Assembly: GCA_013694695.1 (NCBI GenBank)
Contig: JACDBX010000111.1
Location: 1 to 62,117, forward strand
Reading direction: 5' to 3'
DNA length: 62,117 nucleotides
DNA from: Gemmatimonadales bacterium
Lineage (GTDB): Bacteria; Gemmatimonadota; Gemmatimonadetes; Gemmatimonadales; GWC2-71-9
Below, in pieces: positions 3 to 12,049 of this stretch. A program made the position numbers and the translations under genes. The notes under the pieces were generated by a model. The model did no database searches and had not been told where the DNA came from. It saw only the letters and a list, made by a program, of their open reading frames with translations. How positions within the stretch are numbered: the stretch's first letter is position 1; each line of letters opens with the position of its first letter.

Positions 3-134
3 GCGGGGGGGCGCGGCATACTGCCTCTGGGTTGGAACAACTCCGTGGATGAACCGATGAAGGGGGACGGCATAGGATATGCCCCCTACAATTCGCTGTC
101 AACGGACCCCAACCCCGTGCAGGAAAAACTCTAA
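3..134 (+). CDS. possible 3' end of a CDS entering from upstream of the window (hypothetical)
   Basis: Frame 3 is open from the window edge to TAA at 132-134 with mostly G/C third positions (...LPLGWNNSVDEPMKGDGIGYAPYNSLSTDPNPVQEKL*). No family recognised. Absent from the ORF track because it has no start in the window. Confidence 0.2.
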   Translation, partial: AGGRGILPLGWNNSVDEPMKGDGIGYAPYNSLSTDPNPVQEKL

Positions 135-182: not shown

Positions 183-1247
183 CTAGCCCATCCGTTTACT
201 CGCGTGCGCCTTCGCAATCGCCCCGATCAGCGGTGCCGGATCAAACCGCACCGGGTCGGTGCATGGCAACCCGGTCTCGCGCGCCGCGTCGTCGCATGCC
301 TTCCGCGCAGCCGCCTCGCCCAAGTCGTAGGTGTTCATCGCGATGCCGATCACCTTGGTCGGGTGCACCGCGCTACCGAATTCCTCGTACCATTTCACGT
401 ACTGTGACAGCGGCGGGATCTTGAGCCACGACGCATTCCGGTAGTCACCGATGTACTCGCGGCTCGCCTGATGGCAGAGGATCATCGCATCGGGGCACGA
501 GCCGTGGAGCAGGCCGAGCGTGACGCCGCTGTAGCCCGGGTGGTTGATGCTCCCCTGCCCCTCCACCAACACGACATCCGCCCCTTCGGCGCCCTGCACC
601 GTGATCCGCTCGGCGGCACCGGCAATGAAATCGGCGACCACCGCGTCGACCGCGATCCCCCAGCCCTCGATCATCATCCCGGTCTGCCCGGTGGGGACAA
701 ATCGCGTCTTGACGCCAGATGCATTGAGCTTGTCAACGAGCTGGAGCTGCGCCGTCATCTTCCCGACGTTGCAGTCGGTCCCCACGGTGAGCACCACCAG
801 CGCATCGACCTGCTTGGCCAGTCCCGATGCCACAGGGAGATCGGCAGGCGGACGCCGGATGTCGACGATCGTGCCGCCGTGCTCGCGCGCCGCCTTTGCC
901 AGCAACGGGTCATCAGCGAGGAAAGTGTGCAACCCGCTCACCACACCGCAGCCAGCTTCAAGCGCCTCACGCAGCCACTCACGCCATGCTTCGGGGAGCC
1001 GGCCACCCTGTGGCGCGATTCCCACCAGCACCGAGTTGGCGCCCAGCGCGAGGCCTTCTGCCATGCTCGCTACCACGGGGGTGTCGCCCCCAAACCCAAG
1101 CACGTCCTGCACGGTCTTTCCGGAGAGCTGCCGATCGAGCACCGCTACCACCCGGTCGGGTTGGTAGCGGATGATCGAGTTCGCGGTCTTCGACGTCATC
1201 GGGCCGAAGTCGCCATCGGCCAAAATCAGGTGTCGCGGTGCGTTCAC
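183..1247 (-). CDS. DUF1611 family protein (Rossmann-like N-domain plus P-loop-like C-domain; DgcN-like)
   Basis: 354-aa ORF. The GTG start at 1247 overlaps the pspA stop (GTGA). Sequence resembles the DUF1611 family (VLVEGQGSINHPGYSGVTLGLLHGSCPD, TVGTDCNVGKMT). Confidence 0.8.
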   Translation of the reverse strand: MNAPRHLILADGDFGPMTSKTANSIIRYQPDRVVAVLDRQLSGKTVQDVLGFGGDTPVVASMAEGLALGANSVLVGIAPQGGRLPEAWREWLREALEAGCGVVSGLHTFLADDPLLAKAAREHGGTIVDIRRPPADLPVASGLAKQVDALVVLTVGTDCNVGKMTAQLQLVDKLNASGVKTRFVPTGQTGMMIEGWGIAVDAVVADFIAGAAERITVQGAEGADVVLVEGQGSINHPGYSGVTLGLLHGSCPDAMILCHQASREYIGDYRNASWLKIPPLSQYVKWYEEFGSAVHPTKVIGIAMNTYDLGEAAARKACDDAARETGLPCTDPVRFDPAPLIGAIAKAHASKRMG

Positions 1248-1993
1248 GGCGTACCGATCTCCCCGTCACGCGGCTTGCCGCCCTGGCCGATCTGCTTCGG
1301 TGTCTCGGTGGTGCCCGCCTTGAGCGCGCCCATCTTCGCCTTGAGTTCAAGCAATTGCTGGTCGGAGCTGCCGTGGTACTCGAGCTGCTCGAACTCCTTC
1401 ATCAGGTTGTCGCCAGTGAACTCCTGCTGCAGCTCGGCGGCAGCCAAAGCCTTGCGCTCGTTGTTCTCGATCTTCTCCTGCATCCGCTCGAACGACTCGA
1501 ACGCGCTCTTGTCGCCCATCCCCGACAGCGTGTCCTGGATCCGCTGCGTTGCCTCGGCGCGGCGCGCGCGGGCCACGAGAATGTTCTTCTTGCGCTTCGC
1601 CTCCTCGATCTTGTCGTTGAGCTGGCGGAGCGACTGCTTGAGGGCCTCGGTTTCGGTCTTGCTCTTTGTCCAGGTCTCGTGGAGCTGCTGTGCGCCCTGC
1701 AGCGCCTCGTTGTAGCGCATCAGCGCCTGCTTGGCGAGGTCGTCGCGGCCCTCCTGCACGGCCAGCATGGCGCGCCGCTCCCAGTCCTCCGCCTGCTTCT
1801 TCATCGCCTGCGCGTCGGATTCGAGCTTCTTCTCGTCGGCGATCGCCTGCGCCACCTGCTGGCGGGCCTTGTCGAGCTGGGTGCGCATATCCACGATCAA
1901 CGTCGTCAGCATCTTCTCGGGATTCTCGGCCCGGGAGATGAGGTCGTTGAGGTTCGAGCGCACCATCGTCGCGAAACGTTCAAACATTCCCAT
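1244..1993 (-). CDS. pspA: phage shock protein A / IM30 family protein
   Basis: The N-terminus MGMFERFATMVRSNLNDLISRAENPEKML closely parallels E. coli PspA [28 protein letters not shown]. The protein is coiled-coil rich. GGGAGGGG Shine-Dalgarno lies 8 nt upstream of the ATG at 1993. The track ORF starts at GTG 2002. Confidence 0.9.
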   Translation of the reverse strand: MGMFERFATMVRSNLNDLISRAENPEKMLTTLIVDMRTQLDKARQQVAQAIADEKKLESDAQAMKKQAEDWERRAMLAVQEGRDDLAKQALMRYNEALQGAQQLHETWTKSKTETEALKQSLRQLNDKIEEAKRKKNILVARARRAEATQRIQDTLSGMGDKSAFESFERMQEKIENNERKALAAAELQQEFTGDNLMKEFEQLEYHGSSDQQLLELKAKMGALKAGTTETPKQIGQGGKPRDGEIGTP

Positions 1994-1998
1994 CGTGG

Positions 1999-2385
1999 TC
2001 ACCCCTCCCGGTACGGCGCGAGCGCGCTCACGTGTGACGCGAGAGCGAGCGAGAGCGAATCGACGCTCGCCTCGAACTCGGTGAAGTCGAGATCAGCCAG
2101 CAGCAACGCATCGGTCAGCACCACCACGTCACCCTCCAGGCCATATGAGCCGTGGACCAGGTCGCGGGCATTGTACTCCAGAAGCTGGCGCGACATCGCT
2201 GCCGCTCGTGTGGGATCCGCCGGAATCGGCATCACCCGCACCCGCATGACCAGCACTGGCGGCGCATAGTGCACCACCAGCTCCGCATCCTCGTTGGTTC
2301 GCACAAGCCACATGTCCTCTGCGACCGACTCGACGCTCAAGTCGAGGCGATCGAGGTAGGCCTGCACGTCCTCACACGTCGTCAT
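1999..2385 (-). CDS. YbjN-like (type III secretion chaperone-fold) protein
   Basis: 128-aa ORF from ATG 2385, preceded by GGAGGAG. The acidic alpha/beta protein (MTTCEDVQAYLDRLDL...VVHYAPPVLVMRVRV) resembles the YbjN family. Its stop overlaps the GTG at 2002. The longer track ORF (to 2613) overlaps the upstream gene. Confidence 0.6.
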   Translation of the reverse strand: MTTCEDVQAYLDRLDLSVESVAEDMWLVRTNEDAELVVHYAPPVLVMRVRVMPIPADPTRAAAMSRQLLEYNARDLVHGSYGLEGDVVVLTDALLLADLDFTEFEASVDSLSLALASHVSALAPYREG

Positions 2386-2470
2386 CGAGACTCCTCCGGC
2401 CCGGCGAACCGGGTATTGGTGATCGGGAAACGTAGTGCGGGCCACGACGCCCTCCAACGCAGGCGCGACG

Positions 2471-2818
2471 TCACGGTGCGCCGGGCTGGTCCGGACGACT
2501 CGCCAGCAATCGCTCGGCGAAATCAGTGCGCTCTTCCAGCTCGGCCAAGCGACCGCGGAGTTCATCAAGCTCGGCGTACACCTCAGCCGGGACATCGAGC
2601 ACGCCCGTTTCATGCACCGCGTGACCCGTGATCCGGTGGGCCAGTGCCTGGCCCACGGCGCTGCGGGAAAAAACCCAGAGCCCGCCCAGCGTCATTCCCC
2701 AGATCGGGATCGCCGCCGGGCCAAGAATTCCGGTGACCGCGACCAGCCCGGCCATGAGGAAGAGCGTGGGCCAGCCGAGCCCCATCGGATCGGTGCGGTG
2801 GGCGTCATCGCGGCTCAT
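2471..2818 (-). CDS. small membrane protein, DFAERLL-motif paralog (PspB-like?)
   Basis: 115 aa with two hydrophobic helices, then LDELRGRLAELEERTDFAERLL. ATG 2818 is preceded by GGAGAG. It overlaps the upstream paralog by 14 nt. Confidence 0.7.
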   Translation of the reverse strand: MSRDDAHRTDPMGLGWPTLFLMAGLVAVTGILGPAAIPIWGMTLGGLWVFSRSAVGQALAHRITGHAVHETGVLDVPAEVYAELDELRGRLAELEERTDFAERLLASRPDQPGAP

Positions 2819-3188
2819 TCACGCTCTCCGTGTTGGCGCCCTTGACCAGCATACGCTCGGCGAAATCGAGCCGCCCTTCAAGCTCCATCACGCGCGACTG
2901 CTCGAGCGAGAGCTCATGCAGACGCGCCTCGATGTCCTCGACGCGCATCACCAGCTGGTCGTCGGGAAGGGCATCGCGTTCATCGTCGAGCATTCGGGCG
3001 ATCGCGCGACCGATCGAGCTGCGGACGAATCCCGCAAGCAGCACCATCCCCGCCGCGAGGACCACCAGCGGCATCGGATTGCTTGCGTGCTCCGACTGGT
3101 CGAGCACCACCATCAGGAAGGTGAAGGCTGCCGCGACGATTCCCGCCGTCAACAGGATCCCGAGGCCCCTCGATCGTCCGCCGCTCAT
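2805..3188 (-). CDS. small membrane protein, DFAERLL-motif paralog (PspB-like?)
   Basis: 127 aa with two hydrophobic helices, GRAIARML, then VMELEGRLDFAERML. ATGA overlap with the upstream paralog. GGAGGA Shine-Dalgarno. Confidence 0.7.
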   Translation of the reverse strand: MSGGRSRGLGILLTAGIVAAAFTFLMVVLDQSEHASNPMPLVVLAAGMVLLAGFVRSSIGRAIARMLDDERDALPDDQLVMRVEDIEARLHELSLEQSRVMELEGRLDFAERMLVKGANTESVNEPR

Positions 3189-3493
3189 GATTCCTCCGTG
3201 ACCGGCAGCGCGCCGGGCTTGGCCTGCGTCAGCAACCGTTCCGCGAAATCGACACGCTCCTCCAGTTCGGCAAGGCGGATGAACTGGTTGTCGACCTCGC
3301 CCGACGTGAGCGCGCGATTCTCGATATCCGTCAGCCGCGCCTCGAGGGCCACGATGTGCACGTCATCCGAGCCGCCGCGGCCCTCGATCCGTCTGGCGAA
3401 CGCCTTGATCAGCGGTGTCATCGCCGCCCAGAATGCGACTTGTCCGACACCGATCGCGATCCAGAATGCGAAATCGCCGACGCCATCCCCCAT
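3185..3493 (-). CDS. small membrane protein, DFAERLL-motif paralog (PspB-like?)
   Basis: 102 aa with one hydrophobic helix, IKAFARRI, then LAELEERVDFAERLL. The start overlaps the stop of the upstream mini-ORF (TGATG). AGGAG Shine-Dalgarno. Confidence 0.7.
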   Translation of the reverse strand: MGDGVGDFAFWIAIGVGQVAFWAAMTPLIKAFARRIEGRGGSDDVHIVALEARLTDIENRALTSGEVDNQFIRLAELEERVDFAERLLTQAKPGALPVTEES

Positions 3494-3582
3494 CAGGGTT
3501 GCTCCTGACCGGGCAACTGCGCATGCTGACGCTGCGTCAACAGGCGTTCCGAGAAATCGAGGCGATCCTCCGGCTGCATCAT
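3493..3582 (-). CDS. 29-aa mini-ORF carrying only the motif (MMQPEDRLDFSERLLTQRQHAQLPGQEQP); truncated paralog or micropeptide
   Basis: Not in the ORF track; I translated it by hand. Its ATG overlaps the upstream stop (ATGA at 3579-3582) and its TGA overlaps the downstream ATG. GAGGGG lies 6 nt upstream. Confidence 0.35.
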   Translation of the reverse strand: MMQPEDRLDFSERLLTQRQHAQLPGQEQP

Positions 3583-3860
3583 GTCAGCCCCTCGGTCCGG
3601 GAGGAGCCCGCTGCCTGGTCCGCACCTTTCGCGAGCAGGCGCTCCGCGAAGTCGACTCGTTCATGCAGTTCGGTCATGTCGGCACGTAGGCGATCAAGCT
3701 CATCCCAGACCGCGTGATCGGGCTCGGGGTTCGCCAGCGGCTGGGGGCCGTGCCGCAGGCGATCAGCGAAGGCCCGGCCTACCGGCGACACCGCCAGCAG
3801 GAAGAGCGTACCGCCGCCAAATATGAATGTGATCGCGAGGATGTCTTCCACGAGTCCCAA
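3579..3860 (-). CDS. small membrane protein, DFAERLL-motif paralog (PspB-like?)
   Basis: 93 aa with one hydrophobic helix, GRAFADRL, then MTELHERVDFAERLL. The track start is TTG 3860. GTG 3851, with GGGAG 9 nt upstream, is an equally good start. Confidence 0.7.
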   Translation of the reverse strand: MGLVEDILAITFIFGGGTLFLLAVSPVGRAFADRLRHGPQPLANPEPDHAVWDELDRLRADMTELHERVDFAERLLAKGADQAAGSSRTEGLT

Positions 3861-3927
3861 CTCCCGAATCGAAGTGAACAGGAAGACTTACGCAGCTCGC
3901 CGCGCCGATGTTTCAGTCGGAAACAAC

Positions 3928-4806
3928 CTACTTCCGGGGCTTGAGCTGGACCAGCCGCTCCCGAGCCAGCCGCCGTCCGGTTGGCGTCGCGGCGAGCCCG
4001 CCACCAGCGGTTTCCCGGTACCTGACGTCCATGTCGCGGCCGATCTGCCCCATCGTGTCGACCACCTCATCGACCGGGATCGGGAAGGCGACCCCTGCCA
4101 GCGCCATCTCGATGCCGGCGAGCGCCATCGCCGCGCCGGTGGCATTGCGGTAGACACACGGCACCTCGACCAGCCCGCCGAGCGGGTCGCAGACCAGGCC
4201 GAGCGTTCCCTGCATGGTGAGCGACACGGCGTGCATCGCTTGACGGGGAGTTCCACCGAGAAGCTCGACCCCGGCTGCGGCAGCCATCCCCGCCGCCGCG
4301 CCGGTTTCGGCCTGGCACCCACCTTCGGCGCCTGAGAGCGAGGCGCGCACCGCCACGACGGCGCCCACCAGGCCGGCTGTGGCCAAAGCACGCACCATCG
4401 CGTCGTCATCCAGGTTGTGCCGCCCGGCCAGTCCGAGAAGGACGCCGGGAAGGACTCCGGCGCCGCCTGCGGTCGGTGCGGCGACGATCACGCCCATCGC
4501 TGCGTTGACCTCCTGCACAGCAAGCGCCGCGGATAGTGCGTCGGTGAACACCGTGCCGGCGAGCGGCCCGGTCCCGTTGCGCAGCTTCGCCGCATCTCCG
4601 CCGACCAGCCCCGACACTGAGTAAAGATCTCCCTTGAGGCCACGTTCGACGGCGCCGCGCATCACGTCGAGCGCGCGCTGAAGCCCGTGCTCAACCTGTT
4701 CGCGGGTGCGAAGCCCACCAGCGGCCTCGGTTTCGAGGGCAAGCTCACCCAGCGACACGCCTGCCGCTTCGGCGGCCTCGACGGCTTCCAACAATGAATC
4801 GTACAT
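3928..4806 (-). CDS. sdaAA: L-serine ammonia-lyase (iron-sulfur dependent), alpha subunit
   Basis: 292 aa, collinear with B. subtilis SdaAA (NAAMGVIVAAPTAGGAGVLPG, GGCQAETGAAAGMAAA, GLVCDPLGGLVEVPC). Confidence 0.9.
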   Translation of the reverse strand: MYDSLLEAVEAAEAAGVSLGELALETEAAGGLRTREQVEHGLQRALDVMRGAVERGLKGDLYSVSGLVGGDAAKLRNGTGPLAGTVFTDALSAALAVQEVNAAMGVIVAAPTAGGAGVLPGVLLGLAGRHNLDDDAMVRALATAGLVGAVVAVRASLSGAEGGCQAETGAAAGMAAAAGVELLGGTPRQAMHAVSLTMQGTLGLVCDPLGGLVEVPCVYRNATGAAMALAGIEMALAGVAFPIPVDEVVDTMGQIGRDMDVRYRETAGGGLAATPTGRRLARERLVQLKPRK

Positions 4807-5471
4807 CAGGACACTCGCTCCACGACTCGCAATGTTTTCACCGCCTTGATCGCGCGGATCCGTTCCAGCGCGTCTGGCGTCGGAGGCGAGTCGAGTTCGT
4901 AGATGTGAATGGCATCGCCGCCCTTCTGGCGCCGCGACACCCGCATGGTTGCGAGATTCACCGCTCCCTCCGACAGCGCCGTGGCCACCGACGCGACGAT
5001 CCCCGGCTCATCATGCGCCACAACCACCAGGGTGGGATAGGTGCCGGTGATCTCCACAGGGAAGTTGTCGATCGCGGTAACGAGGATCCGCCCGGCACCC
5101 AGCGATGATCCGGTCATCACCGCGCTGCGTCCTTCACGCCGCACCGTGATCCTCGTGGTGTTCGGATGGTGCTCGCCACGCAGCTTGGTGTTGTCGAACG
5201 TGATCGTCATGCCGGCGCGTTCAGCGTGGTCGAGTGCCTCGCGGATTCGTTCGTCGTCGGGTTGGTAGCCCAGCAGGCCCGCTGCGATGGCGCGGTCGGT
5301 GCCGTGACCAGTGCCGGTGCGTGCGAACGAACCGTGCAACTCCACCTTCGCGGTCTCGGGTGTACCGCCGAGAAGGGCACGCGCGATCAGCCCGAGGCGG
5401 CACGCGCCTGCGGTGTGCGACGATGACGGACCCACCATCACAGGTCCGATGATATCGAGCAGCGAGACCAT
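4806..5471 (-). CDS. sdaAB: L-serine ammonia-lyase (iron-sulfur dependent), beta subunit
   Basis: 221 aa. LLDIIGPVMVGPSSSHTAGACRLG N-terminus plus a C-terminal ACT-like domain. One-nt overlap with the sdaAA start. Confidence 0.9.
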   Translation of the reverse strand: MVSLLDIIGPVMVGPSSSHTAGACRLGLIARALLGGTPETAKVELHGSFARTGTGHGTDRAIAAGLLGYQPDDERIREALDHAERAGMTITFDNTKLRGEHHPNTTRITVRREGRSAVMTGSSLGAGRILVTAIDNFPVEITGTYPTLVVVAHDEPGIVASVATALSEGAVNLATMRVSRRQKGGDAIHIYELDSPPTPDALERIRAIKAVKTLRVVERVS

Positions 5472-5689
5472 CAGGCCACCAACTCCGCGGATCGGATCGC
5501 TTCGAAGGACACCCCGATTTCGGTATCGTCGTCGCCCCCAACCTGCAGGAACACCTCGTGGGCGGTGACATGATCATCGACGCTCACCGGCACCCCCGTG
5601 ACCTCGGTGTCATCGCGCAGCACGAGCCGGACGGGCAGCATGTTCCCATTGGCATAGCCCAGGATCTCGAGGATGGCTTCGGTGGTCAT
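5471..5689 (-). CDS. hypothetical small acidic protein
   Basis: 72-aa ORF. GGAGGG Shine-Dalgarno upstream of the ATG at 5689. Its stop overlaps the sdaAB start. No family recognised. Confidence 0.5.
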   Translation of the reverse strand: MTTEAILEILGYANGNMLPVRLVLRDDTEVTGVPVSVDDHVTAHEVFLQVGGDDDTEIGVSFEAIRSAELVA

Positions 5690-5758: not shown

Positions 5759-7570
5759 TTACCCCTTCAATCTACCCCGATCGCCCGCTGAAAGACCTCC
5801 GCGCGAACCCGTGCCGAACACGTCCTGCGAGCGAGCGAGCGCCTGGACGGCATCGAGGAGGCCATCGAGCTCACTGCGCGCCTTGCGGACGGCGTGCCGA
5901 TATGCAAGGCGCATCCCGCCGAGCGAGAGGCCGCCGACAAGCGCCAGGATGGCGGCGCTGAACGGCAGGGCGAAGAGGAGTGCCCCCTCAGCGATCCCGA
6001 TCCCGATCCCGATCGATGCCCCCACCGACCCGAGTCCGGCACCCATCCCGAATCCGAATTTCGCGTTCTTCCCGATGCCGCCCCTCACATCAGTGGTGAT
6101 CACCAGCTCGCATCGCCTGGGATCGCCGGGCAGCGCATGGAGCGTCACCCGCAGCAGCGTGGCGCCGACGCTGGAGAGGTGATAGCGCAACATGTTCACC
6201 CCGGCGGCCGTGGTCATGTAATCACTCATGGTCATCGGCCGGCTCAGGAACGTGAGCACCCCGCCATCGAGGGGGTGGCCGCCAACCGTGTCACGGAACA
6301 GAAGGTTATGGGGGGCCGCTGGGAGTACCTGGCCGACGGCATCGAGCACCTCGCGCGGGCTCGCGCCGATTACCCGCGACACTCGCAGCGATTGCTCCAC
6401 GTTGCCCAGTACGAAGCGGTCGAACTTCGAGCCGCCTGCCTCCATCCTTGCTGGCAGCGCTGCTTCATCGTCGGGAAGCTCGGCGAGTGCCAGGTGGACG
6501 AACTCTTCGGCGATGCCCGCCTCGACCGCTGCCGCCTCCACGTCGCCCATCCGGTAGCCGCTGGTGGGCGATGAGGAGTGCATGCCGGTCGCAAACTCTT
6601 CCGCCTGTGCGGTGCGTTCCCGCACCCGTCGTGAAGCATCAGCCTGAAGCTGCGCCGCGCGAAGCCAGATTGCCTTGGCCGAGGCCTCATCGAGAACGCG
6701 CTCGGGGGCAGCTTGCGGGCCGCTCTGGACCTCACTCAGCGCCGCCACCAACGCTTCGGCCAGCGCTTCGCCGCTGGGGTACCGCGCGGCGGGGTCCTTC
6801 GCCAGGCACTGCTCCACCACCGCCACCAGCGGTGCCGGCACCGTGGGCGCCACGTCGCGGAGCGACGGCGCCTCGCGCGTGGCCTGCATCAGCAGCACCG
6901 CCGACGCCTGCGGCGCATCGAATGGCAGCTTTCCCGAAAGGAGCTGGTACGCCACCACGCCGAGTGAGTACAGGTCGGCCCTGCCGTCACCGACCTCCCC
7001 TGCGACGCGTTCCGGTGCCATGTAGTGCACCGAGCCCAGCACCATGCCGTCGGCGGTCATGCCCGTTGCACGCGCGTCACGCGCGATGCCGAAATCGGTG
7101 ACCATGACACGACCGGTACCACGCTCGATCATGATGTTCTCCGGCTTGACGTCGCGATGGGTGACGCCGCGCGCATGCGCGTACGCCAGCGCCCACGCCA
7201 CCTCCCGGACGATTCGCACCACGTCGGCCGGCGGGAGTGGGCCCCGCGCCAACAGGCGTTCGGCCGCTGTCTCGCCATCGACGTAGCCCATGGCGAAGAA
7301 CGCCACTCCGTCGAGCTCGTCGGCGCGGAAGATCGGGACGATGTTGGGGTGCGAGAGCTGCGCCGCGGTCCGCGCCTCGCGGAGGAATCGTTCGCGCAGG
7401 TCCGCGTCGCCGGCCATCGCAGGCGGGAGCACCTTCACCGCCACCAGCCGGTCGAGCATCAGTTCGCGCGCCAGCAGGACGATGCCCATGCCACCGCGCC
7501 CGAGTTCGCGCTCGATGGCGTACTGCGACGCCAGGCGGGGGCGGAGCGAGTCGACCGTGGTGTCGTTCAA
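5759..7570 (-). CDS. serine/threonine protein kinase with uncharacterised C-terminal domain and glycine-zipper membrane segments
   Basis: Hanks kinase motifs are present: [27 protein letters not shown]. The only start upstream of the Gly loop is TTG 7570, which overlaps the uvrA stop (TTGA). The rest of the 782-aa track ORF overlaps uvrA and is rejected. Confidence 0.85.
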
Positions 7571-10416
7571 CCCAGCACCCGCGCGAGGAAACGTCCGGTA
7601 TGACTCGCCGCAACCTCCGCCACCTCTTCCGGGGTGCCCTCGGCGAGAATGGCCCCACCACGAACGCCGCCGTCCGGCCCGAGATCGATCACCCAGTCGG
7701 CGGTTTTGAGCACATCGAGATTGTGTTCGATCACGATCACGCTGTTCCCCTTCCCGACAAGTCGGTGGAGCACGTCGAGCAGGAGTCGCACATCCTCGAA
7801 GTGCAGCCCCGTGGTCGGCTCGTCGAGGATGTAGAGCGTGCGGCCGGTGTCCCGCTTCGAGAGCTCGGTGGCGAGCTTGACGCGCTGCGCCTCGCCACCA
7901 GAGAGCGTCGTGGCGGCCTGGCCGAGATGCAGGTACCCGAGTCCGACATCGTTGAGCAGCCCCAGCTTTTCGGCGATGCGTGTCTGCGCTGCGAAGAAGT
8001 CCATCGCCTCTGCGACAGTGAGCTCGAGCACGTCGGCGATGCTGCGACCCTTGTAGCGGACCTCGAGGGTCTCGCGGTTGTACCGCCTCCCCTTGCAGAC
8101 ATCGCACGGCACGTACACGTCGGGAAGGAAGTGCATCTCGATCTTCACGAGACCGTCACCTTGGCACGCCTCGCACCGGCCACCCTTCACGTTGAACGAA
8201 AAGCGACCTGGGCCGTAGCCACGCATCTTCGCCTCGGGAAGCTGCGTGAACAGCTCGCGGATCGGCGTGAAGAGGCCGGTGTAGGTCGCGGGGTTCGATC
8301 GCGGCGTGCGCCCGATCGGGCTCTGGTCGATCTCGATCACCTTGTCGATGTGATCGATTCCCTCGATCCGCTTGTGCTCTCCGGGAATCACCTTGGCACG
8401 ATAGAACTGCCGAGCCAGCGACTTATAGAGGATGTCGGTGACCAGTGTCGACTTGCCGGAACCCGATACGCCGGTCACCGCGACGAAGACGCCAAGTGGT
8501 ACGTCGACGGTGATGTTCCGGAGGTTGTTGGCCTTGGCACCAACGATCCGGAGCATCCGTGCGGGATCAACGGGGCGCCGCACGGGAGGAACGGCGATGC
8601 GGAGTTCACCGCGCAGATAACGGGCGGTGAGCGAGTCGGGATGCTTGAGCACCTCGGCCACCGTGCCCTCGGCCACGACCTCGCCGCCAAAGCGACCAGC
8701 GCGGGGCCCGAGGTCGATCAGGTGGTCGGCCGCGCGGATGGTGTCTTCGTCGTGCTCCACCACGATGACCGTGTTGCCCAGGTCACGCAGCCCGCGGAGG
8801 GTGTCGAGCAGCCGCTCATTGTCACGCTGGTGCAGGCCGATGCTCGGTTCGTCGAGGATGTACAACACACCCACGAGTCGCGACCCGATCTGGGTTGCGA
8901 GCCGGATCCGTTGCGCCTCGCCGCCTGACAACGACCCCGCAGGTCGTCCCAGGGTGAGGTACTCCAGGCCCACGTCGCGCAGGAACCGCAACCGCTCGAC
9001 GACTTCCTTGAGAATCGGGCCCGCGATGTCGGGATCAATCGCGCCCGCGCGGCCGCGGCCGACCGGGATCGATTCGAAGAACGTGGTGGCATCCTCGACA
9101 GCGAGTTCGACCACATCGCCGATGCTCTCGCCGTGAATCAGCACCGCGAGCGATTCCGCCTTGAGCCGCTTGCCCCCACACACGATGCACGGCTGCTCGA
9201 TCATGTAGCCCTCGAGGCTGTGCCGCACCGCGTCACTCGACGAGTCTTTCCACCGACGCCGGAGGTTCTGCAGTACGCCTTCCCACTCGCCCTCGACCGC
9301 ACGCCCCTTCCCGCCGTCGGCCACGTACGTCACGCGCTTTCCCGGTGCACCGAGGAGGAGGATCTTGCGGGCCGCCGCCGGGATGTCCTCCCACGCGTCG
9401 TGCAGGTTGAAGCCGAAGGTGCGGGCCAGCGTGGGGAGCACGACCTTGCGGAGATAACCGCTGGGCTCTCCCCATGGCAGGACCACGCCCTCGAGGATCG
9501 AGATGCTCGGGTCGCCGAGGACGAGGTCGGCGTTCGGAACGCGCGAGGTGCCCACGCCGTGGCATTCCTCGCACGCGCCGAACGGCGAGTTGAACGAGAA
9601 CTGTCGCGGTTCGAGTTCGGGAAGTGAAAGGCCGCAGGTCGGGCACGCGAAACGTTCCGAGAACATCCGGGTCTCGACTTCCTTGCTCTTGCCCGCGCCG
9701 TGTCGGACCACCTCGACCACGCCGTCAGCCACCCGGAGCGCGGTCTCGACCGAGTCGACGAGCCGGCTCCGCTCCGACTCACGCACCACGAGGCGATCAA
9801 CCACCACTGCGATGTCATGGTTCTGGCGACGGTTGAGTTTCGGAACCGCGCCGAGGTCGTGGGTCTCGCCATCGACCCGTACCCGGGCGTATCCCTGCTT
9901 GCGAAGGTCCTCGAAGAGGTCGCGGAACTCGCCCTTCCGACCGCGGACCATCGGCCCCATGACCTCGATCCGTGTGCCCTCGGGCCAGCCGAGCAGCGTG
10001 TCGGCAATCTGCCCCGCACTCGATCGGGTGATCGGCGTGCCATCGTCGGGGCAGTGCGGCACGCCGGCCCGCGCCCAGAGAAGGCGCATGTAGTCGTACA
10101 CCTCAGTGACGGTGCCGACGGTCGAGCGTGGATTGTGTGCCGTGGACTTCTGCTCGATCGAGATCGCCGGCGAGAGTCCCTCGATCGCATCGACGTCGGG
10201 CTTCTCCATCAATCCCAGGAACTGCCGGGCATACGCTGACAGCGATTCGACGTAGCGTCGTTGACCCTCGGCGTAAATCGTGTCGAAGGCGAGCGACGAC
10301 TTGCCGGATCCCGACAGCCCCGTGATAACGGTGAGGGCATTGCGCGGGATCCGCACGGTCACGTTCCGCAAGTTGTGCTCGCGGGCTCCCCGGACGATCA
10401 GGTACTCTTCGGCCAT
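7567..10416 (-). CDS. uvrA: excinuclease ABC subunit A
   Basis: 949 aa from [19 protein letters not shown]. Two ABC ATPase modules ([18 protein letters not shown]) and zinc-finger cysteines. Confidence 0.97.
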
Positions 10417-10498
10417 AGCCCGGAAGAGTAAGGTCAACGGGGAACGTGGAGCAACGCGGAAACCCCGGATCGGCCCGTTGCTTGCTATCGTTGGGCCC

Positions 10499-12049
10499 AT
10501 GAGCTCCTACCGGCCCACCCTTCGCGCCCTCGCGGCGGTCGCCGTGCTCACGGCATGGGGAGGAAGCCTGACGTGGCTGGGCCTGCGCCGCCTCGACGCG
10601 GGGGCCACCCCCGATCTCTCGCTCCTCGCATCGCGCCGCCTTGCGCCGGGCGAGGCGCGCTTTGCCGTCCAGATCGGCGACGTCCAGATCGGTAGCGGCG
10701 GGCTCACCCTCGACACCCTCTCCCCGGGGTATCGAATCGTCGAGACGCTGACTCTCGAAACCCGTGGTGACACGGCGCTCTCCCGGGCGCTTCGGATGAC
10801 AGAGACGGAACTGGCTCCCGACCTGACCTTGCGCCAGGTGCGGAGCCGATTCGTGCGCCCCGGACTCTCGCAATCGGGACTCGGACGATATGCCGACGGG
10901 CGCCTCACGTTCCGGTACGACAGTGGGGGCACCGGGAGTGCGGTGCTGGATTCCACCACACCCGCCGTCCCGATCGTGGCGCTCGCTTACCAACTCGCTA
11001 TCCGGGGCGAATTGCGCATCGGGCGGAACGGGAGGGACCTCACCACCGGTGGGTGGCCGAGCGTCGCACGCAATGCATCCTGGAAAGTGACGGGTGACAC
11101 CACGCTCGTCTTCCCCGACAGCGCCGAGTTCGACCCTCGGACACTCCGATGGAAGGCCGTCCACTGGGACACAGCCCGAGTGGTGCGAATGGTCGTTACC
11201 GCCCCGACCGGTCCGTACACCGCATGGGTCGAGCAGAATGGCACGCTGGCGGGCATCGAATACCCGCTCGGCACTCGCTGGATCCGTACCGACTTCAACC
11301 TGGCTGTGTCGGCCTTTCGGCGGACACTTGATTCGGGGCGAGACGCGATTCGCTCTGTGCTGCCGCTGATGGAGCCGTATGCGACATCGGTGGTGCGGCG
11401 TGATACGGCAACCACGGAGCGACGCTTCCTGGTCACCCGCGCCTCGTCGCGGGAAATAGACCTTGCGGCGCTGGCGCAGCTTGCGGGAGCGCGACAACGC
11501 GTGTCGCACGACACCCTGTCGATCGGGCCGACGACATTCGCCGACGGCCTCACCCCGACCAGCGACGTGGCGACCGACCCGCTGGTGCAGCGTGATGCTG
11601 CACCCCTGGTGGCGCTGGCCCGGGACGTCTCCCGTTCAGGTGACCGCGCGGCGATCGTGGCGCGGCTGGCGAACGTCGTGGCTGCGAAGGTTGCGCTGGA
11701 CACTGCTTATGGCGCACCGGTCGACGCGCTCGGATGCCTCCATGCACGGCGCTGCCGCCCCGATGGCATTGCCCGGCTCTTTGTCGCGGTTGCGCGGGAG
11801 CTCGGGATCCCGGCACGGTACGTCGTCGGGTTCGCCGCGATTCCCGGCGGCGTGGCGACTCACGCCTGGTCGGAGGTCTGGTACGATGGCGGAGCGGGAT
11901 GGGTGGCGGTCGACCCCGTCATGGGCCGCGCCGTTGCCAGTACCGCGCTCGTTCGGATCGGATTCGGCGGATCCAGTCATCCCGAGGAACTGCTCACGAG
12001 CCTTGCCGATGTACGGCTCATCCCCCTGCCGGACGTGAGGACGCCGTGA
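10499..12049 (+). CDS. transglutaminase-like domain protein with N-terminal membrane anchor/signal
   Basis: 516 aa from ATG 10499. Hydrophobic N-terminus. C-terminal transglutaminase core pattern ([29 protein letters not shown] ... HAWSEVWY ... WVAVDP). Confidence 0.75.

Follow-up and report, generated by a model that had tools for sequence, protein, structure and literature searches.

Introduction

Targeting of PspA/IM30/Vipp1 proteins to damaged membranes is known for a few model lineages, each of which employs a different small partner (PspB/C, LiaI, YdjG/H, or PspM). The role of membrane partner to PspA is taken by PspB and PspC in Escherichia coli and by LiaI or YdjG/YdjH in Bacillus subtilis, where PspA is anchored via YdjG and YdjH through YdjI. 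LiaI and PspM each act as the anchor or partner of their own PspA homolog, with a single partner gene per system. The B. subtilis pspA-ydjGHI operon is controlled by sigmaW and encodes the membrane anchors of PspA, and PspA depends on these operon-encoded proteins to reach the Bacillus membrane (PMC8581546). The CesT/Tir-PspA dyad is likewise an established phage shock protein (PSP) module and has been described in combination with band-7/flotillin, AAA+ ATPase, YqiJ/YuaF, or spermine-synthase genes; duplicates of PspB within psp operons are also known (Ravi et al. 2024, PMC11237479). Here we analyze a 62,117-nt stretch of DNA from a Gemmatimonadales bacterium (GCA_013694695.1, contig JACDBX010000111.1, positions 1 to 62,117; the whole stretch is referred to as the window), in which such a dyad is preceded by a tandem array of genes sharing a C-terminal DFAERLL motif. 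The five open reading frames (ORFs) of the array belong to one uncharacterized, Gemmatimonadota-wide family of small inner-membrane proteins. We propose, with moderate and evenly balanced confidence, that the locus is an envelope-stress operon driven by an extracytoplasmic function (ECF) sigma factor, in which the paralogs are the membrane anchors or sensors of PspA, and that it represents a variant of the PSP system.

Organization of the array

Five ORFs occupy positions 2471-3860 of the minus strand, four of them coding for 93, 102, 127, and 115 aa and the fifth for 29 aa. These are listed below with their paralog classes, transmembrane (TM) helices, and ratios of nonsynonymous to synonymous substitution rates (dN/dS).

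3579-3860, minus strand: paralog 1 (class A), 90 aa from GTG 3851 or 93 aa from TTG 3860; one TM helix; the PspB-like member; dN/dS 0.04-0.15
3493-3582, minus strand: mini-ORF of 29 aa, 3' relic of a class-B gene; RLDFSERLL motif, Shine-Dalgarno (SD) sequence, and both overlaps (ATGA, TGATG) kept
3185-3493, minus strand: paralog 2 (class L), 102 aa; one TM helix; dN/dS 0.09-0.15
2805-3188, minus strand: paralog 3 (class E), 127 aa; two TM helices; dN/dS 0.11-0.30
2471-2818, minus strand: paralog 4 (class G), 115 aa; one clear and one weaker hydrophobic helix; dN/dS 0.11-0.31

Stop and start codons overlap as ATGA at 3579-3582 and 3185-3188 and as TGATG at 3491-3495, paralogs 3 and 4 overlap by 14 nt (2805-2818), and a gap of 85 nt separates the array from the CesT/YbjN-like gene that follows (ATG at 2385). 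An SD-like sequence precedes each array gene, the mini-ORF included. The initial annotation of this DNA had placed the four ORFs, the 29-aa ORF, the overlaps, the motifs, and the 85-nt gap correctly, and its list of ORFs requires two amendments: the first gene probably encodes 90 rather than 93 residues, and the mini-ORF also carries the motif. For paralog 1, GTG 3851 (90 aa, MEDILAITF...) is the most likely start over TTG 3860 because the orthologs begin MEDILAI... and an SD sequence (GGGAG) lies 9 nt upstream.

Alignment of the five products gives the consensus R-x-D-F-[AS]-E-R-[LM]-L, within which R, D, F, E, R, and L are invariant. The pattern [RK].DF[AS]E[RK][LMIV][LMIV] has five matches in the six-frame translation of the window, all within the array, and no match in 300 triplet shuffles. 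Compared with orthologs in three related genomes, all four genes show dN/dS values of 0.04-0.31, and the GC content at third codon positions of the array (0.75-0.82) is similar to that of the flanking genes. The four array genes are real and under purifying selection; the possibility that they are spurious ORFs was dismissed on the strength of dN/dS and conservation.

The mini-ORF is recognized by the family hidden Markov model (HMM) with E=6e-12. A full-length class-B paralog of 108-112 aa occupies its place in the close relatives L001 and L003, which have five genes, and DNA alignment with these two loci indicates that ~250 bp of the class-B 5' part are missing from the window. What is left corresponds to the last 29 codons, aligned with ...ELEERLDFAERLLTQR...LP of the intact class-B genes, and in the relatives L002 and L006 the class-B gene is wholly missing. 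Judged by these alignments, the mini-ORF is the 3' relic of a fifth paralog and no designed mini-gene.

A Gemmatimonadota-wide protein family

Scans of the paralogs against Pfam-A and NCBIfam returned no family above threshold, bearing out the earlier view that the motif fits no named family; 149 diverse members were scanned in addition. A profile of the five copies retrieves at least 6,946 clusters at 90% identity, and the 50%-identity representatives at E<=1e-3 number 1,776, every one of them 73-137 aa long. Those hits that carry a name are solely "hypothetical protein" of Gemmatimonadales, Gemmatimonadota, or Gemmatimonadetes. A profile search of the PDB gave coiled-coil noise alone (best E=0.0019), Foldseek with the model of paralog 3 gave nothing at E<=10, and our literature search found no description of the DFAERLL motif or of PSP systems in Gemmatimonadota.

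A scan of one genome per GTDB species yielded 463 relatives. Among the best 80 loci (numbered with the prefix L), 78 are from Gemmatimonadota metagenome-assembled genomes (MAGs). L058, from a MAG labeled Bacillota, has a Gemmatimonadales-type array with the CesT-PspA-DUF1611 genes, and L073, from a MAG labeled Chloroflexota, spans only 1.9 kb with two array genes; both arrays are typical of Gemmatimonadales, and the contigs are probably mis-binned. Five database proteins of 120-209 aa (P0008, P0045, P0090, P0096, and P0110) contain two motif copies each, as apparent fusions of adjacent paralogs. These may be artifacts of assembly or gene calling rather than natural fusions, because several lie on short or long-read contigs that show frameshifts.

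Architecture of the paralogs

The family plan consists of one or two N-terminal TM helices, a basic juxtamembrane helix (G-R-A-x-A-R-R-I), and a single long C-terminal helix that ends in E-L-E-E-R-[LV]-D-F-A-E-R-L-L. Among 486 members (from the 80 loci and the window), hydropathy analysis found one TM helix in 361 (median length 96 aa) and two in 102 (median 122 aa). The AlphaFold2 model of paralog 3 (predicted local distance difference test score, pLDDT, of 88) has helices at residues 3-32 and 39-56 (both TM), 58-71 (juxtamembrane, containing GRAIARML), and 76-124, while that of paralog 1 (pLDDT 86) has helices at residues 2-21 (TM), 23-34, and 46-88; the long C-terminal helices of the two models extend over 43-49 residues with pLDDT 96-98. 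The single TM helix is preceded by acidic residues, the two-TM hairpin has basic residues on both cytoplasmic sides, and basic residues follow the last TM helix. By the positive-inside rule, this charge pattern predicts that the long helix is cytoplasmic in both the one-TM and the two-TM forms.

Within the motif, the 149 diverse members have F, E, and R without exception and D, R, L, and E at 90% conservation or more. When 443 members were anchored on D-F, conservation reached 92% for E(-6), 95% for E(-3), 100% for R(-2), and 95% for L(+6); D(0), F(+1), E(+3), and R(+4) are partly fixed by the D-F anchor, and their conservation was confirmed in the independent 149-member alignment. Relative to D, hydrophobic residues recur at -15, -12, -8, -5, -1, +2, and +6 with the regularity of an a/d heptad. 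This register places the invariant residues R(-2), D(0), F(+1), E(+3), and R(+4) at g, b, c, e, and f, mostly on the exposed face. Between the juxtamembrane motif and D-F the distance varies little (median 34, interquartile range 31-35). The heptad together with the conserved outer residues fits a predicted coiled coil that would also present a docking surface.

Synteny with the CesT/Tir-PspA dyad

The genes that follow the array in the window are the following.

1999-2385, minus strand: CesT/Tir-like (YbjN-like) chaperone gene, 128 aa; PF22550 CesT_Tir_1, E=5.8e-27; PF10722 YbjN, E=6e-4
1244-2002, minus strand: pspA (PspA/IM30, ESCRT-III-like), 252 aa; PF04012, E=1e-46; its start overlaps the CesT-like stop

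The PspA protein scores 143 bits against TIGR02977, which is under the equivalog cut-off. Synteny was counted at 66 of the 80 species loci, those with at least 1.4 kb beyond the array. In all 66 the array leads directly to pspA, with a CesT/Tir-like gene in between in 65. The initial annotation had named a lack of synteny between DFAERLL-motif genes and pspA as a possible refutation of a PspA connection, and the synteny held at every locus counted. Divergent members that are weaker hits (P0110, P0090, P0161, and P0192) come from the same locus. Translational coupling joins the final gene of the array to the CesT-like gene in ~17 loci; in the A-M-B-A clade this stop-start overlap is ATGA. One extra class-H member occurs in L045 (1573-1824), ~4 kb upstream of the main array and beyond the serine dehydratase genes, so that family members can occur outside the array.

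Across the 80 loci the arrays contain 2-14 copies, and their junctions are predominantly -4 or -1. Paralog classes were defined by average-linkage clustering, single linkage having merged everything into one cluster. The order of classes is A-B-L-E-G in the clade of the window (in the window itself A, the B relic, L, E, and G), H-F-N-A-B-D-C-J(-I) in another clade, and A-M-B-A and F-A-D-I-A in others; class-A orthologs were found in all 80 loci. The classes keep their order; the paralogs are accordingly old, differentiated, and retained together, with lineage-specific gain and loss.

Small proteins with one or two TM helices and charged C-termini could also be membrane-damaging, holin-like proteins, or else clients of the CesT-like chaperone, with PspA encoded alongside for protection. 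CesT-type chaperones do bind client peptides, and a few members have noise-level hits to holin or lysis families. This reading is highly improbable, as a search of 2.9 million viral contigs found no relatives of the family, PADLOC gave no match and PHROGs a single noise-level match (E=0.0026), the locus shows no mobility hallmarks, and it is chromosomal, order-wide, and syntenic, with conserved classes under strong purifying selection.

A conserved ECF-type promoter motif precedes the array

The proposal of a PspA partnership under envelope-stress control draws further on a promoter-like site between the sdaA stop and the first array gene.

3889-3915, minus strand: predicted ECF-sigma-type promoter TGAAAC-N17-CGTA, with the -35 element at 3915-3910 and the -10 element at 3892-3889

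TGAAAC at -35 with CGTA at -10 is the consensus of the sigmaW-type ECF promoter of B. subtilis (PMC5758882), and the sequence in the window has both elements before the first gene at the 16-17 nt spacing of that type. The pattern TGAAAC-N15-18-CGTA occurs once in the window, where 0.09 matches are expected by chance. In the 120 nt before the first array gene, k-mer counting found TGAAAC in 70 of 77 loci, and the complete motif stands no more than 160 nt before the array in 67 of 76, with a spacer of 17 nt in 61 and of 16 nt in 6. Eight other matches were found in 1.57 Mb, seven of them at an array start where the gene start had been called too long and one elsewhere. The array promoter motif is thus conserved and position-specific, and is predicted to be of the ECF-sigma type; it is a new result, undescribed in PMC11237479 or PMC9239133. 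A generic sigma70 and terminator scan of 2000-4000 returned nothing. Upstream of the -35 element, GTTTC (3924-3920) forms an imperfect inverted repeat, GTTTC-N5-GAAAC (3910-3924, minus strand), that overlaps the -35, and the residues G-T-T-n-C at this position are 79-86% conserved in 70 loci. This repeat may serve a dimeric regulator as its operator, or it may extend the -35 element.

Since ECF-dependent operons often encode their own regulators, the paralogs might instead be feedback regulators of the operon's ECF sigma factor, that is, membrane-tethered proteins resembling anti-sigma or anti-anti-sigma factors, or protease decoys, with the conserved motif as the binding site for the sigma factor or for a regulator of it. 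The genes come first after the conserved ECF-type promoter motif, and the inverted repeat over the -35 hints at further regulation. We nevertheless consider such a function quite improbable: the paralogs have no anti-sigma domain similarity in Pfam or NCBIfam, an N-terminal TM segment followed by a C-terminal cytoplasmic helix is the reverse of the classical anti-sigma topology, and no conserved ECF sigma gene accompanies the operon. In phmmer searches with E. coli RpoE no ECF sigma gene was found in the window or the 80 loci. At 11587-14375 in L087 and L088, an ECF sigma gene (PF07638) stands beside a tetratricopeptide repeat (TPR) Ser/Thr kinase gene on the opposite strand, downstream of the operon (kinase ~0.8 kb away, sigma gene ~3.5 kb). 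This pair was considered as a regulator of the operon and rejected, its position not being conserved in the other loci.

An element between the array and the CesT-like gene

A composite element occupies most of the gap downstream of the array.

2400-2457, minus strand: composite intergenic element with a -35-like TTGGAG, a GC hairpin, CTACGTTTC containing a -10-like TACGTT, and a second hairpin

The -35-like hexamer lies at 2457-2452 (TTGGNG in the clade), and the GC hairpin falls inside the 17-nt spacer. The invariant CTACGTTTC places the -10-like TACGTT (2434-2429) 17-18 nt from the hexamer, and the second hairpin, CCCGG/CCGGG (2413-2400), is directly 5' of the SD sequence of the CesT-like gene. 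The pattern TTG[GC]NG-N15-20-TA[CG][GA]TT is found at the array-CesT position in 24 of 78 loci and 14 times elsewhere in 1.55 Mb. All 15 loci of the window's clade have the two hairpins, and the stems covary. This count comes from per-sequence folding, used in place of RNAalifold on a MAFFT alignment of the spacers, in which the hairpins were misaligned and no structure was predicted. The element occupies the corresponding position in L001-L008, L012, L023, L026, L027, L030, and L061, and Rfam gave no match within 2300-4000. It may be an internal promoter, a leaky terminator, both, or a stabilizer of the 5' untranslated region.

A promoter-like element with hairpins before the CesT-like gene suggests a separable downstream unit, as would be expected were the paralogs stress effectors independent of PspA. 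They would then form a coiled-coil scaffold that stiffens or organizes the inner membrane, with the motif serving self-assembly and the adjacency to pspA reflecting a shared ECF regulon. The regular a/d heptad and fixed helix length suit homo- or hetero-oligomerization, and the conserved paralog order and tight coupling suggest a stoichiometric assembly of the paralogs themselves. We nonetheless judge this scaffold unlikely. The invariant residues lie mostly at the exposed positions b, c, and f, outside the core, which is more typical of a partner-binding surface; a family member away from CesT-pspA turned up at just one of the 66 loci (L045, with its extra copy); and in one clade the last paralog is translationally coupled to the CesT-like gene.

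Relation to PspB

The initial annotation had pointed to the C-terminal helix of E. coli PspB as the nearest known likeness. The likeness proved real, albeit weak and sub-threshold (for class A, TIGR02976, E=1e-5; hhalign, 38%). In the NCBIfam scan of the 149 members, TIGR02976 (PspB) ranked first, with 43 members matched (best E=3e-6). Class-A orthologs align with TIGR02976 over profile positions 5-69 of 75 with E=1.4e-5 to 2e-3, and paralog 1 of the window scores 16.2 bits (E=0.0094). For profile comparison we aligned 32 PspB sequences down to 36% identity, the diversity coming from a search with Aeromonas PspB; searches with E. coli PspB and a plasmid tblastn gave near-identical enterobacterial sequences only. 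Class A compared with these 32 diverse PspBs in hhalign gave 38% probability (P=3.3e-4) over 63 colinear columns, spanning the TM helix to the helix end (ELQERVDFAERLL versus RMxERIxTLEAIL). The whole-family profile gave 22%, with the register shifted by one heptad, and an enterobacterial-only PspB profile gave 6.9%.

The architecture of PspB (~75-90 aa, a single N-terminal TM helix, a basic stretch, and a cytoplasmic C-terminal helix) is found in class A alone, the other classes being longer or having two TM helices. The characteristic PspB residues P9, P19, W21, H25, Y26, R56, L60, E61, L64, D65, E67, and W71 are not present as a set: hhalign pairs identical residues with PspB at P, R, E, and L positions alone, and the HY and ILDAE.P.W signatures are missing. 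The profile matches are suggestive of homology between class A and PspB, and the shortest class (A, paralog 1) may be a very divergent PspB. The family as a whole is PspB-like in architecture and position and is no PspB by any curated criterion.

Neighboring genes

Beyond pspA the window continues as follows.

183-1247, minus strand: DUF1611 (DgcN-like P-loop/Rossmann) gene, 354 aa; PF07755, E=3.5e-72; PF17396, E=4.7e-30

This gene overlaps the pspA stop by 4 nt, and its product scores 279 bits against NF041892 (DgcN), for which the cut-off is 480. DUF1611 is downstream of pspA in most loci and is coupled to it at -4 in 16. An insertion of ~1.05-1.7 kb separates pspA from DUF1611 in 12 loci, and that of L054 encodes an AI-2E family transporter. 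The PSP surveys PMC11237479 and PMC9239133 make no mention of a link between PspA and DUF1611.

Upstream of the array the window encodes the alpha and beta chains of L-serine dehydratase. Only 26 of the 66 loci with enough upstream DNA have sdaA directly upstream, and a DPP-IV-type peptidase takes its place in others. A 72-aa ORF (5471-5689, minus strand) for which Pfam gave no match lies just upstream of the gene for the beta chain, and a 71-aa gene is called at its position in L083, L085, L086, L087, and L088. Further upstream, the longest ORF of a Ser/Thr protein kinase (5759-8107, minus strand) overlaps the 3' part of the uvrA ORF (7567-10500, minus strand) by ~540 nt. Because the kinase domain begins at residue 196, translation of this gene probably starts well past the listed GTG.

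Proposed mechanism

In the operon that we propose, an ECF-sigma-type promoter would be followed by the array, the CesT/Tir-like chaperone, PspA, and DUF1611. Membrane stress would lead an ECF sigma factor to switch the operon on, and translational coupling would result in paralogs made in fixed proportions. The paralogs would insert with the C-terminal helix in the cytoplasm (positive-inside, in one-TM and two-TM forms alike) and pair via the coiled-coil core. The invariant R-D-F-E-R surface would then stay free as a docking site that the paralogs have in common, to which PspA would bind directly or with the CesT-like protein as an adaptor. The ESCRT-III-like PspA polymer would thereby be anchored at or recruited to the stressed membrane, and/or the stress would be sensed. 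From the genomic context we infer a physical link between the array and PspA, and PspA or the CesT-like adaptor is probably the most economical partner for the invariant surface.

Several observations weigh against this proposal. The chief weakness is that the case for a partnership is contextual throughout. The 80 loci all go back, as orthologs, to a single ancestral locus within one order, and the perfect synteny therefore represents a single evolutionary association and not many independent ones; linkage was, in addition, counted within these loci, one of which (L045) has a copy outside the array. The promoter-like element with its hairpins could partly uncouple expression of the array from that of the CesT-like gene, and 2-14 paralogs are not obviously needed for a simple anchor. 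PspC and PspF were not detected in the window or the loci by phmmer with the E. coli proteins, a search of low sensitivity. As to PspB, other families composed of a TM segment plus a helix also match weakly in NCBIfam (GspM, 27 members; CcmI, 18 members, best E=4.8e-5), and Pfam PspB (PF06667) is matched by 3 of the 149 members (best E=0.017). The TIGR02976 scores of class A (18-25 bits, best 25.3) compare with a curated cut-off of 51.7, and reciprocal HMM scores are only 7-11 bits. Six of 1000 architecture-preserving shuffles attain the class-A score, and the register of the PspB alignment differs by one heptad between methods.

A further reading, which is possible and yet doubtful, would make the array a new type of membrane receptor platform for the PspA polymer. 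Here the paralogs, co-translated in set stoichiometry, would assemble beneath the membrane into a hetero-oligomeric coiled coil, and the CesT-like adaptor would recognize their shared R-D-F-E-R surface and so nucleate PspA. The number of copies would set the size or stress range of the platform, and the family would be unrelated by descent to PspB, LiaI, and PspM.

The locus provides a phylum-wide, previously unannotated candidate for a PspA partner in Gemmatimonadota, with features that can be tested: a short invariant putative docking motif, a defined candidate stress promoter, a CesT-like putative adaptor, and copy-number variation from 2 to 14. A new protein family model could be built from the ~1,800 sequence clusters. 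PspB-like proteins may range beyond Proteobacteria, and a PspA operon is here linked to a predicted ECF-type promoter outside Firmicutes.

Comparison with known systems

In the window, the CesT-like gene lies immediately upstream of a co-oriented pspA with overlapping stop and start, as in the CesT/Tir-PspA dyad. In comparison with the described dyads, the DFAERLL array, DUF1611, and Gemmatimonadota are unmentioned in the main text of PMC11237479, and the DFAERLL family with its ordered 2-14-gene arrays before the dyad is undescribed in that survey or in PMC9239133. The initial annotation had held the architecture to be unlike known modules. This stands for the DFAERLL array and falls for the CesT/Tir-PspA half, which was already described (PMC11237479), and paralog 1 is perhaps a very divergent PspB.

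Like PspB of the proteobacterial pspABC system, the family consists of small membrane proteins in which an N-terminal TM helix is combined with a C-terminal helix in the cytoplasm, and whose genes adjoin pspA. It differs in having its own D-F-x-E-R-L-L and juxtamembrane G-R-A-x-A-R-R-I motifs, whereas the P..W..HY of the PspB TM helix and the ILDAE.P.WR of its end are mostly absent. In further contrast to PspB, there are 2-14 paralogs, some of them two-TM proteins, encoded upstream rather than downstream of pspA, an ECF-type promoter is predicted, and neither PspC nor PspF/sigma54 was detected in the low-sensitivity search.

LiaI-LiaH of Firmicutes and PspM-PspA of Actinobacteria similarly encode a lineage-specific small membrane protein together with a PspA homolog. 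Homology to these partners is not detectable, with weak PspM hits in 2 of the 149 members and none for LiaI, and those systems are regulated by LiaRS or ClgR, in contrast to the ECF-type promoter predicted here. By analogy, pspA-ydjGHI of B. subtilis is the closest functional counterpart of the proposed mechanism, as it too places pspA and small membrane proteins behind a TGAAAC/CGTA-type ECF promoter. The two are not similar in sequence. In Bacillus the partner genes come after pspA, and a flotillin-like SPFH protein is one of the partners, whereas the partners proposed here precede pspA, form a multi-paralog set, and are accompanied by a CesT-like protein and DUF1611.

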